The notes below the pieces were generated by a model. That model searched no databases and was not told the DNA's origin. It saw only the letters and a program-made list of their open reading frames with translations. DNA of 64,000 bases from an uncultured Candidatus Saccharibacteria bacterium. Lineage in GTDB: Bacteria > Patescibacteriota > Saccharimonadia > CAILAD01 > BJGX01. Made by a program: the position numbers and the translations under genes. Position 1 is the stretch's first letter, and every line of letters starts with the position of its first letter. Positions 12,301-14,888 of the stretch are shown in pieces. Location: positions 287,442 to 351,441 of the forward strand of contig CAZSVP010000001.1 in NCBI GenBank assembly GCA_964610335.1, written 5' to 3'.

Positions 12301-12642
12301 ATGGTAAAAAATGTACAGACGACTCAAATTGTAGATGGCGGAGACTTAGGTTTTAAAGAAGACAAGCCGAAGGTTCTTGGCAGATCTGCAAAAGAAAAGC
12401 AGCACAAGAGTAATCACAAAGCACTAAAAATATCTTTGGCTGCAGCAATTCTAATTCTAATTGCTCTTTTCGCTGCTTTGTTCCTACTTGCGCGCGCTGG
12501 ACGTAGTAGTTTAGTACCTGTTTATACGCCTCCAAAAGATCAAGTTATTCGTCAACAAGGCGAGGAAGTTACTCCAGAACCGGAAGATTTGGAAAACGGT
12601 GCCCAACGTTCGCAGCCAATACCAAGTACGGGAGGTCGATGA
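12301..12642 (+). CDS. Small single-pass membrane protein
   Basis: 113 aa with a basic N-terminus, one TM (ISLAAAILILIALFAALFLLA) and a Pro/Glu-rich tail. Stop overlaps the start of the next gene (ATGA). Confidence 0.4.
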   Translation: MVKNVQTTQIVDGGDLGFKEDKPKVLGRSAKEKQHKSNHKALKISLAAAILILIALFAALFLLARAGRSSLVPVYTPPKDQVIRQQGEEVTPEPEDLENGAQRSQPIPSTGGR

Positions 12643-14888
12643 GTAAGATTGTTAGTTATCTCTTGCGGCTTTCAGCTATCGTATTTGGAGTTGTGAGTAT
12701 TTTATTACTCATTGCACCAAAGGCAAGTGCCAATGAGTTCACACAAACTGGAACATATATGAACTCACCTTATAGCTACTGTGATACACAGCATACATAC
12801 TACGACCTATATTCTCCTGGTGGAAATATCACAATCACACAAGGCACGCCAAGCCGTACTATTACTTTTTACGGTAAGGTGCATGCCTGTAGCACATTAA
12901 GCTATGAGTGGGCATTATGGCCACATATTAATTTCTATAATGTAAACTCTAGATTATCTGGGCTTTCTACTAACTTGGATATGGGTGAGCCTACGCTTTA
13001 TGGGTTAGGGTCTCGGCGTGGCAATATCTATACTGTTGCCAGAAATGTTACTGTAGATACATCGGGGCTTGGGCCTGGTGTACATAACATTTGTTTTAAT
13101 TGGCGTGGGTGGGGTTATCATGGCTTTTGGGACCACACTATTGAAGTGACCTACTGCGTGTCTGTTACTGTAAATGCTCCTCCGCCTCCTCAAAGCGGCA
13201 ATATGCAGATAACCATGTATGGCCCCAATAACGGATCGCGTATCTTTAATGCTGGATATATTTGGCCAGGCGGGCTCTGGCCAGGAAATGATAGATTCAA
13301 TATGTGTATGGCTTACTTTGGGAAAATAGCAAACTCGTGTACTGGTGGGCACGTGCAGTCTCCAAATGTGTCTTTAAGCCCAGCAACATACACTGTTTAT
13401 AGGGATAACAATATTGACACTGACGGCTGGTATATCAACTATGTTCAGAGGGCACAGAATGGTCCAATAGTGCCAGATAGTGGCTTTGATCGATATGCTT
13501 TTGCTGTTGCAAACAATCAACAGGTCTATGCTGACGTACATCTTGAGAAGTATGCATCGCAATGTCGGGACACAACATTTTCTGTGGCCAAGCCTAAGCC
13601 AGGTGAAGAGTTTACAGCAACATTTAATATGCAAAATCCAGGTGGTATTACCAACTGGTCTCATGGCGCTGGTGTCAGGATGAAAGTTTTTATACCAAGC
13701 CAATTTGAGATTTTAACAGCACCTGCTGGCGCATACGATGATCCACCAGAGGTGGGGCTGGAGGGTTTCTTGGGTAACAAGATACACTTACAGATATTTT
13801 ATCCTGGCAATGTTGCTAGTGGCAGTACCTTCACTAGGACATTGAGATTGAAGGTCAAGGATACTGCACCACCTGGAAGTATTGCTAAATTCCCTCGATC
13901 CATGATATTCCCACCTAAATCCCCAGCAGCCAATCCCTATGGTTCTCCATTTAACCCAGGGTGTGACTCTCAAATTGAGATTGGCACACCAGTTTTTTAC
14001 CCTTGGCTACAAACCAAGTATGGCGATGTCAGTGCTGCCGACTTTGTATCTGGGCAGAAATACAACCAGCCTGGGTCACGAGAGGCAACTTCGAGTGAGA
14101 AAGAGGCGACCAATGTGATCATGGCAACAGCAGCTGACCAGCAGTTTTGTAGTGTCAATCTATATGCATTGGGCACAAATCCTAAAGTTCAGCGTGAACA
14201 GTGTCGGAATGGACGTTACGCCGAGGATCAGAGATTTGGTGATATAGACACTGCAATCAATAATGCGTGGAATCAGAATGGAGCGGGTTCCTCTCCAGGG
14301 TGCAATCCGCGCTATGGCACACAGAAACTAACTGGATCAACCAAGGTAGGGGCCAATCTCAGCTCATGTGCCAATGGTACGATCTATCAGGTCAATGGTG
14401 GGGCAAGTCTATCAAGCTTGTTGGCTGGACAACCGAGTCAGGGGAGAGCCACCATCTGGGTGAAGGGTAACTTAACAGTTGATCGAACAGTGATTTACAA
14501 TTATGCCGCAAGCTATGCCAAACCCGAGGACATACCAAACCTAGCAATCTATGTGGAGGGCGACGTGATAATCCAATCCTCATACGATCAGCTTGATGCT
14601 GCCATCATTAGTACTGGCAAAATCAAGACCTGCGGAAGCGATTATTCCACCACAGCATCAGCACCCACATGTGGGTCGCAATTGGTCGTCCACGGCTACT
14701 TATTTGCCAATGGCGGTTACCAATTCGGCCGTAATTATTATGTAGAAACCAGCCCAAATACCAATCCGGCCGAGAAGATAGTACTTACTGGCCAATCCAT
14801 AGCGTTTCCACCGCCAGGGCTAGATAAGGCATCACTAGGTAACAACGACCTCAAAATTACCGAAGAAGACAATCCACGCGTAAAATAA
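12639..14888 (+). CDS. Large secreted/surface protein of unknown function, directly upstream of pilM
   Basis: 749 aa with a signal peptide (…LLLIAPKASANEF). Rich in G/N/T/Y/W/C, with no recognisable catalytic motifs. Translationally coupled to the upstream membrane protein. Confidence 0.55.
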   Translation: MSKIVSYLLRLSAIVFGVVSILLLIAPKASANEFTQTGTYMNSPYSYCDTQHTYYDLYSPGGNITITQGTPSRTITFYGKVHACSTLSYEWALWPHINFYNVNSRLSGLSTNLDMGEPTLYGLGSRRGNIYTVARNVTVDTSGLGPGVHNICFNWRGWGYHGFWDHTIEVTYCVSVTVNAPPPPQSGNMQITMYGPNNGSRIFNAGYIWPGGLWPGNDRFNMCMAYFGKIANSCTGGHVQSPNVSLSPATYTVYRDNNIDTDGWYINYVQRAQNGPIVPDSGFDRYAFAVANNQQVYADVHLEKYASQCRDTTFSVAKPKPGEEFTATFNMQNPGGITNWSHGAGVRMKVFIPSQFEILTAPAGAYDDPPEVGLEGFLGNKIHLQIFYPGNVASGSTFTRTLRLKVKDTAPPGSIAKFPRSMIFPPKSPAANPYGSPFNPGCDSQIEIGTPVFYPWLQTKYGDVSAADFVSGQKYNQPGSREATSSEKEATNVIMATAADQQFCSVNLYALGTNPKVQREQCRNGRYAEDQRFGDIDTAINNAWNQNGAGSSPGCNPRYGTQKLTGSTKVGANLSSCANGTIYQVNGGASLSSLLAGQPSQGRATIWVKGNLTVDRTVIYNYAASYAKPEDIPNLAIYVEGDVIIQSSYDQLDAAIISTGKIKTCGSDYSTTASAPTCGSQLVVHGYLFANGGYQFGRNYYVETSPNTNPAEKIVLTGQSIAFPPPGLDKASLGNNDLKITEEDNPRVK

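Follow-up and report, generated by a model that had tools for sequence, protein, structure and literature searches.

The window analysed here is a stretch of 64,000 nucleotides (nt) from an uncultured Candidatus Saccharibacteria bacterium (GenBank assembly GCA_964610335.1, contig CAZSVP010000001.1). Directly upstream of pilM and its type IV pilus (T4P) cluster, it carries a pair of genes that encode a 113-amino-acid (aa) single-pass membrane protein and a 749-aa secreted protein (Table 1). A sequence-only reading of this DNA had described two overlapping genes for a small membrane protein and a large signal-peptide protein, and the open reading frames (ORFs) are exactly as described. They are genuine genes and not chance ORFs: the same arrangement of homologues is found in more than 20 independent contigs. 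The small-gene stop and the large-gene start share the sequence ATGA, and a GGAGG motif ends three bases before the ATG of the large gene. The 113-aa protein has a basic, polar N-terminus predicted to lie inside, one hydrophobic segment at about residues 43–65 and a Pro/Glu/Gln-rich tail of about 48 residues predicted to lie outside. It has no match in Pfam, NCBIfam, PHROG or PADLOC.

The pair is preceded by a likely intrinsic terminator of the upstream gene orf223; folding of the RNA from 12166 to 12300 gave −46.2 kcal/mol (z = −5.5). No terminator-like site was found within the 36-nt gap between the large gene and pilM. Since there is a strong terminator upstream and none in the gap, the pair seems to open a transcription unit running into pilM-pilN-pilO, and the sequence suggests that it is probably co-transcribed with the pilus genes.

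The 749-aa protein begins with a Sec-type signal peptide (M1...APKASA↓NEF), which contains a helix at residues 2–24 in the AlphaFold2 (AF2) model. Its relatives have comparable signal peptides ending in AEA, ASA, AHA or AQA. The protein is without a class III (G↓FxxxE) signal and matches neither PF07963 nor TIGR02532, unlike the true pilins in the window, which do match these models. Lacking both a class III signal and an N_methyl motif, it was rejected as a type IV pilin or minor pilin. Compared with the cytoplasmic proteins of the window, the 749-aa protein is enriched in G (9.9 vs 7.0%), N (7.5 vs 3.9%), Y (5.9 vs 2.6%), W (1.6 vs 0.3%) and C (1.9 vs 0.6%), which bears out the composition noted in the sequence-only reading. 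Six of its 14 cysteines are conserved in the C-terminal domain, and we counted the cysteines as an extracellular feature. Searches of Pfam, NCBIfam, PHROG and PADLOC gave no match to the protein, and sequence searches of the PDB with the single sequence and with a profile gave nothing usable.

Relatives of the large protein were found by an exhaustive HMMER search, which returned 195 sequences at E ≤ 1e-3 and 41 at E ≤ 1e-30. A word-indexed protein search recovered just four relatives with the single sequence and six with a profile; the family is visible only through the exhaustive search. The region common to the 195 relatives comprises only query residues ~450–749 (~300 aa). It consists of a conserved C-terminal domain (C-domain) and tail and always stands at the very C-terminus of the relatives, which range from 400 to 1700 aa in length. 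The C-domain contains repeated strand motifs (GxLTI, PNLAIxVxGxVxI and IDAxIxATGxIxTC) and the closing motif PAExIxLTGQSxxFPPPG. The AF2 model of this domain, built from a 27-sequence alignment, is a beta-solenoid core with a flanking helix; the predicted local distance difference test score (pLDDT) is mostly above 85 over construct residues ~95–290, with a dip to ~52 near residue 235. Foldseek comparison of the model with the PDB gave no match at E ≤ 1e-3. The nearest neighbours were ice-binding beta-helices of the DUF3494/IBP type (probability 0.96–0.99, E 0.1–0.3, template modelling score (TM-score) 0.2–0.4), and matches to ComZ (6qvi) and a tapirin (6n2b) were set aside as too weak to serve as evidence. 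The predicted beta-solenoid speaks against the beta-propeller or PilY1-like fold that the sequence-only reading had named as something to look for. As there was no Pfam or PDB sequence match either, the C-domain could be assigned to no described family, and the relatives constitute an undescribed protein family with a new conserved domain.

The C-terminal tail is of nearly fixed length. Among 98 non-redundant members, 93 have 27–29 residues between FPPPG and the C-terminus, and the end is PRF-COOH in 53 and PR[LIV]x-COOH in 32. The last 16 residues have a pLDDT below 50 in the AF2 models. There is no hydrophobic segment at the end of the 749-aa protein, which stops 0–1 residue past PR[FLIV]. 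A sortase or exosortase sorting signal was rejected because no transmembrane helix and basic tail follow this motif.

In the full-length AF2 model (mean pLDDT 66) the N-terminal half forms modules at about residues 50–180, 187–305 and 308–425. Their Foldseek neighbours are 3lso, FimP, SpaA, CppA and EbpB, which are tandem beta-sandwich surface proteins, together with CBM2. The N-terminal half is thus modelled as adhesin-type, resembling Gram-positive pilins, CBM2 and Ig-like stalks. Neither family searches nor Foldseek detected an enzyme or toxin fold in it. Among 59 relatives scanned, the N-terminal modules included B_lectin (three members), DUF6923 (three), CBM60 (one) and CarboxypepD_reg (one), and nine of the 59 had an N-terminal membrane anchor with SurA_N_3 matches. 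The beta-sandwich modules in the model and the B_lectin, CBM60 and DUF6923 modules in relatives fit the earlier description of an adhesin-like protein with no enzymatic character.

We compared the window with two loci of closely related strains, L001 and L002; DNA identity in the flanks is 96.6% for the former and 93.3% for the latter. Nucleotide similarity to both ends at 12224, just past the terminator hairpin. With L001 it picks up again at 13425, leaving none over 12225–13424; with L002 it does so at 13990, leaving none over 12225–13989. The hairpin is therefore the upstream edge of the strain-variable segment, and the point of resumption in L002 is the junction between the N-terminal region and the C-domain. 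Such sharp breaks inside near-identical flanks mean that a cassette made up of the small gene and the N-terminal modules is exchanged outright, with the C-domain, pilMNO and everything else constant. Within the T4P cluster, similarity to L001 breaks at just one further place, 21870–22132, over the C-terminal half of the major pilin gene, which suggests that the major pilin also varies at strain level.

Between ychF and the cassette lies orf223 (11494–12165, plus strand), which encodes a Pro-rich, 223-aa secreted protein with a signal peptide. It has no family match and is kept in L001–L003 at 52–93% identity; L005 and L007 have a different secreted protein of 163–167 aa at this position. The gene is unusually GC-rich for the genome, and as a result spurious ORFs overlap it on both strands.

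To assess the linkage to pilM, three samples of loci were examined. The domain-anchored sample, with one genome per GTDB species, used two conserved peptide patterns and a 7-sequence alignment. It yielded 12 loci, 10 titled Candidatus Saccharibacteria and two titled only 'bacterium'. In all 11 that extend far enough, the C-domain gene is flanked by ychF and immediately precedes pilM, from which the order runs pilM-pilN-pilO-tm79-pilB-pilT-pilC-pilin. A second sample, chosen to avoid circularity, was anchored on eight PilM homologues (50–72% identity) on long contigs, and in 8/8 the gene directly upstream of pilM matches the C-domain hidden Markov model (E 1e-49 to 1e-101). In the distant sample, both weak domain relatives (27–30% identity) stand directly upstream of a divergent pilM (27–32% identity), and one of these two clusters has a different layout. 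No further C-domain copy was found elsewhere on the contigs of the sampled loci. Tandem duplicates of the cassette of partner and large protein occur upstream of pilM in L010 (5860–12387), L012 (3188–8930) and L021 (303–7909). All family members with an organism name are Saccharibacteria, the sole named member being a 'hypothetical protein' of Candidatus Saccharibacteria. The synteny of the C-domain gene with pilM is strict and deep, and the conservation of linkage on which the sequence-only reading had staked its proposal holds in every sample. In the very distant relative L023, T4SS_pilin and SLT genes lie just upstream of the pilus cluster (1658–3941 in L023 coordinates), and pilB is separated from pilT by a response-regulator gene (15898–16278).

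The small protein is less uniform. In most related loci an N-in single-pass membrane protein directly precedes the large gene. The two genes usually overlap by 1–20 nt, most often by 4 (the ATGA type seen in the window), and one locus has a 4-nt gap. Partners are 86–126 aa long in nearer relatives, many with a polybasic stretch, a transmembrane (TM) segment and a GGYxGYRYY-like belt, and 170–345 aa long in more distant loci. L012 (second copy, 1259 aa) and L019 have partner and large protein as a single fused protein, and L018 has no partner. The association is thus real, yet the partner is plastic. Of the membrane anchor that had been proposed, the topology is borne out; its sequence is not conserved, and distant partners are 320–345 aa long or fused. 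SurA_N_3 matches below threshold were found in four partner or fused sequences (E 2e-5 to 5e-4, 20–25 bits against a cut-off of 27.2), and the best SurA_N_3 match among full-length family members reached 5e-11. The 113-aa partner of the window has no SurA_N match and so does not group with SurA_N/PrsA-type foldases. A PrsA/PpiD-like membrane-anchored foldase is encoded elsewhere in the window (33986–35062, plus strand; SurA_N_3 1e-10, PPIC rotamase 6e-31) and is a canonical relative of the SurA_N-like long-form partners in distant loci.

The coordinates of the pair and of the pilus cluster are collected in Table 1. No secretin or PilP family was matched in the cluster of the window or in eight related clusters (L015–L022), in agreement with the earlier view of a pilQ-less system. 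By gene order, the genes at 22970–25986 are plausibly a PilH/I/J/K set. The 355-aa protein that closes the pilin block matches nothing in Pfam or the PDB and probably corresponds to PilX1 of Nanosynbacter lyticus TM7x, and its place in the gene order makes it a candidate PilK/GspK-type acceptor for the C-terminal tail. The 79-aa protein encoded between pilO and pilB is kept in nearly all related loci that reach that far (43–99% identity). Its sole family match is a weak one to Wzz (E 6e-4), and it may be a so far unnamed part of the alignment complex. A XerC/D-like recombinase gene (25980–26891, minus strand) follows the pilin block.

Table 1. Features of the gene pair and the adjoining type IV pilus cluster (positions in the window)
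Feature	Position	Strand	Remarks
Small gene	12301-12642	+	113-aa single-pass membrane protein, partner of the large protein
Large gene	12639-14888	+	749-aa protein
Translational-coupling junction	12631-12642	+	GGAGG 12631-12635; ATG 12639-12641 overlaps TGA stop 12640-12642
Sec-type signal peptide of the 749-aa protein	12639-12731	+	aa 1-31; predicted cleavage ASA↓NE, AxA at 29-31
Variable N-terminal region	12732-13988	+	aa 32 to ~450; three all-beta (beta-sandwich/Ig-like) modules
Conserved C-terminal domain	13989-14804	+	aa ~451-722; starts with YPWLQTxxGDV; six conserved Cys
Fixed-length C-terminal tail	14805-14888	+	FPPPGLDKASLGNNDLKITEEDNPRVK, then stop; predicted disordered in isolation
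Likely intrinsic terminator of upstream orf223	12186-12225	+	perfect 14-bp GC-rich hairpin, then UUCGUUU
pilM	14925-15968	+	TIGR01175 5e-58; 36 nt past the large gene
pilN	15965-16567	+	
pilO	16571-17239	+	
79-aa TM protein	17236-17475	+	between pilO and pilB; start overlaps pilO end
Rest of T4P cluster	17485-25986	+	pilB, pilT, pilC, pilins, prepilin peptidase
Major pilin	21697-22113	+	138 aa
Prepilin peptidase	22174-22944	+	
Three N_methyl pilin-like genes	22970-24869	+	
355-aa protein, last gene of pilin block	24919-25986	+	hydrophobic non-canonical N-terminal helix, no N_methyl motif

Farther downstream, a stretch at ~36000–40000 has a GC content of 54–56%, against ~45% elsewhere, and contains short ORFs only; it may be an integrated or foreign segment. 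One tRNA gene lies inside it (37936–38009) and two lie just past its end (40336–40408 and 40538–40608). The window also encodes a bacterial RNase P class A RNA (61115–61505, plus strand, 226 bits), and six tRNA genes are scattered in it.

Cultivated Saccharibacteria bind their hosts by means of T4P, for which glycan-binding tip proteins have been proposed (PMC11623550; PMC10633639). In the cultivated Southlakia epibionticum ML1, ychF (102732–103880, minus strand) is followed by pilM, which starts at 103892, with nothing between them (PMC10633639, Table S1). The upstream gene order is largely alike: SSB, S18 and EF-P come first, and two extra genes separate them from ychF (PMC10633639). The T4P1 locus of this organism (SEML1_0104–0116) is orthologous to the cluster of the window and is essential (PMC10633639). 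As Southlakia has no cassette between ychF and pilM though this locus is essential, the cassette is accessory and not a core part of the machine, and the earlier suggestion of an envelope-spanning component was dropped. In TM7x, PilX2 is needed for efficient host binding (PMC11623550). T4P locus 1 of TM7x has 13 genes (TM7x_00415–00475), and the gene upstream of it is not discussed (PMC11623550); from the gene count matched to the window, we infer that this locus spans pilM to pilX1. The cassette is undescribed in both experimental systems, Southlakia and TM7x.

The reading that we tentatively prefer, at a little short of an even chance, is that the pair forms an accessory, pilus-linked host-recognition module specific to Saccharibacteria, in which the large protein would be a PilY1/PilC-like non-pilin adhesin with a new docking domain. 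The PilY1/PilC-like logic is suggested by a Sec-exported non-pilin in a pilus operon that combines a hypervariable N-terminus with a constant C-domain and an invariant tail. After export by Sec, the N-terminal beta-sandwich modules would bind a ligand; it is this region that is swapped between strains and that holds lectin, CBM or other modules in relatives. The C-terminal beta-solenoid and the fixed-length tail would dock the protein to the T4P apparatus encoded just downstream. Ellison et al. (bioRxiv 10.64898/2026.02.14.705861) report that PilC/PilY1 docks to a PilK-type minor pilin through beta-strand complementation by its last ~10 residues. They predict such docking for MshQ, a non-homologous protein, as well, and suggest that tip subunits so far overlooked could be found via C-terminal docking. 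By analogy with PilC/PilY1 and MshQ, the most likely mode would be for the extreme C-terminal peptide to insert into the priming/tip complex of minor pilins, and the pilus tip would then carry the 749-aa protein out to the host-cell surface. Such docking at the pilus tip through the C-terminal peptide is conceivable, though we regard it as doubtful. The co-translated partner would probably hold the exported protein at the membrane beside the machine, or aid its folding, because a soluble tip protein would be lost by diffusion before loading in a cell that has no outer membrane. In distant relatives this role would fall to a partner with a SurA_N/PrsA-like ectodomain or to one fused to the large protein. 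The fullest form of the proposal, which we likewise hold to be speculative and rather doubtful, takes the family as the equivalent of PilY1/PilC in Saccharibacteria, with an unrelated beta-solenoid as dock, loading by the tail, a host-determining cassette swapped together with the co-translated partner, and a monoderm membrane tether.

Several observations weigh against the host-recognition module and its tip docking. The 113-aa protein of the window has no sequence similarity or common motif with other partners, with which it shares topology alone, and it has no folded ectodomain. About 15% of family members, L012 and L019 included, carry a cis-fused N-terminal TM anchor, which is hard to square with travel on a pilus tip unless the anchor is cleaved off. 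The absence of the cassette from Southlakia means that it is no obligatory priming factor in the manner of PilY1. While pilY1 follows pilX, the 749-aa gene adjoins pilMNO, ~8–10 kb from the minor pilins, and the minor-pilin-like genes at 22970–25986 precede the opposite-strand recombinase. The fold match of the C-domain is weak (best Foldseek E 0.097, TM-score 0.2–0.4), and the 749-aa protein itself matches no lectin or CBM family.

The fused, membrane-anchored members and the absence from Southlakia fit a tip model poorly and so keep alive another explanation, that of a cell-surface adhesin off the pilus. Here the protein would be anchored through its C-domain, whether to wall, S-layer or membrane partner, its variable N-terminus would bind host glycans at close range, and the synteny with pilM would arise because two attachment devices are regulated together. 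Monoderm surface proteins usually have a conserved domain for anchoring and a distal part that varies, and both the N-terminally anchored fused forms and the dispensability of the cassette in Southlakia are readily accommodated. Wang et al. moreover infer separate protein adhesins besides T4P (PMC10633639). We nevertheless consider this explanation unlikely: no known wall- or S-layer-binding family was matched, the gene keeps its exclusive position directly before pilM even at PilM identities as low as 27%, beyond what co-regulation usually maintains, and the invariant extreme C-terminus is left unexplained.

Operon-encoded proteins that are secreted by T4P and bind minor pilins are known, namely CofJ and TcpF of type IVb pili. 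The 749-aa protein could in the same way be an exoprotein, delivered by the T4P machine acting as a piston like that of a type II secretion system, with the C-domain and tail as recognition module and the variable N-terminus as an effector on the host surface. It is Sec-exported, encoded in a pilus operon and built of a constant and a variable module, as this would demand. In the N-terminal half, however, no enzyme or toxin fold was found, and an obligate membrane partner together with fused, anchored forms points to retention and not to release, which makes delivery of this kind improbable. Still less credible, to the point of being very improbable, is a structural envelope part of a monoderm T4P machine, such as a collar spanning the wall in place of PilP/PilQ. 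The place beside pilMNO mirrors pilMNOPQ and the cluster has no secretin, but the N-terminal half is hypervariable and swapped between strains, protein length varies from about 570 to 1700 aa, some genomes have tandem duplicates, and Southlakia does without the gene though its orthologous T4P locus is essential. A direct PilP/PilQ analogue was rejected on the lack of homology, the variable N-terminus and the absence from Southlakia. The swapping of the cassette also led us to consider a polymorphic toxin with its immunity protein. This was rejected since the polarity is reversed, with a variable N-terminus and the small gene upstream, since the small gene encodes a membrane anchor, and since the search for a toxin fold found none. 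PHROG and PADLOC searches gave no support for a phage or defence origin of the pair.

Saccharibacteria and other bacteria of the candidate phyla radiation live attached to host bacteria, and T4P are required for host binding. The host-recognising molecule has so far been guessed from two minor pilins of one oral strain. A conserved, unannotated gene tied to pilM across the phylum is a concrete candidate for a host-range determinant in the phylum's large environmental part, with a constant domain that would face the machine and a strain-variable part, bearing lectin or CBM modules in relatives, that would face outward. If the fullest form of the proposal is true, the rule that tip proteins dock by a C-terminal peptide would extend to a non-homologous fold in a monoderm lineage, and a strain-swappable cassette would set which host bacteria an epibiont recognises. 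The dedicated membrane partner would be without equivalent in described systems, its tether being a monoderm-specific way to hold a non-pilin tip protein before pilus assembly.

The pair was also compared with known systems. With PrsA/PpiD/SurA_N foldases, the 320–345-aa partners and the fused forms share an N-in TM anchor followed by a SurA_N_3-matching region; the partner in the window differs in having only the anchor and a short tail, and the canonical PrsA-like gene with a rotamase domain is separate (33986–35062). The C-domain resembles DUF3494/IBP ice-binding proteins in its beta-solenoid with a helix alongside (5uyt_B, probability 0.99; 7ehk, probability 0.96). This fold resemblance is marginal (E 0.097–0.4, TM-score 0.2–0.4), no PF11999 match was found by Pfam in the 60 members scanned, and the 749-aa family has a tail and a pattern of conserved Cys all its own. 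Caldicellulosiruptor tapirins are likewise signal-peptide proteins of monoderms that adjoin a T4P locus and have a beta-helix C-terminal domain, and they are surface or substrate adhesins, as is proposed for the 749-aa family (bioRxiv 10.1101/359786). In tapirins it is the C-terminal beta-helix that binds cellulose, whereas in the 749-aa family the C-domain is constant and the N-terminus varies; the structural match is marginal (6n2b, E 2–9) and there is no sequence similarity.

PilX1 and PilX2 of TM7x have been put forward as T4P tip proteins; both carry lectin-like accessory domains and lack a PilD signal (PMC11623550). They have an N-terminal pilin helix and a globular pilin domain and are encoded among the pilins, whereas the 749-aa protein is a non-pilin with a Sec signal encoded upstream of pilM, a position that falls outside the T4P loci analysed for TM7x, by the locus range given (PMC11623550). 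From PilC/PilY1 (PF05567) the 749-aa family differs in having no sequence similarity and a predicted beta-solenoid instead of a seven-bladed beta-propeller; Pfam and NCBIfam searches gave no PF05567 match, and no propeller was among the Foldseek matches of the C-domain model. It also differs in having an obligate membrane partner and in being dispensable in at least one lineage. What it shares with PilC/PilY1, and with MshQ, is that all are large Sec-exported non-pilins encoded in a T4P cluster. In each, an N-terminal part that varies and binds a ligand, as is proposed for the 749-aa protein, is joined to a C-terminal domain that is conserved, as is the extreme C-terminal peptide.

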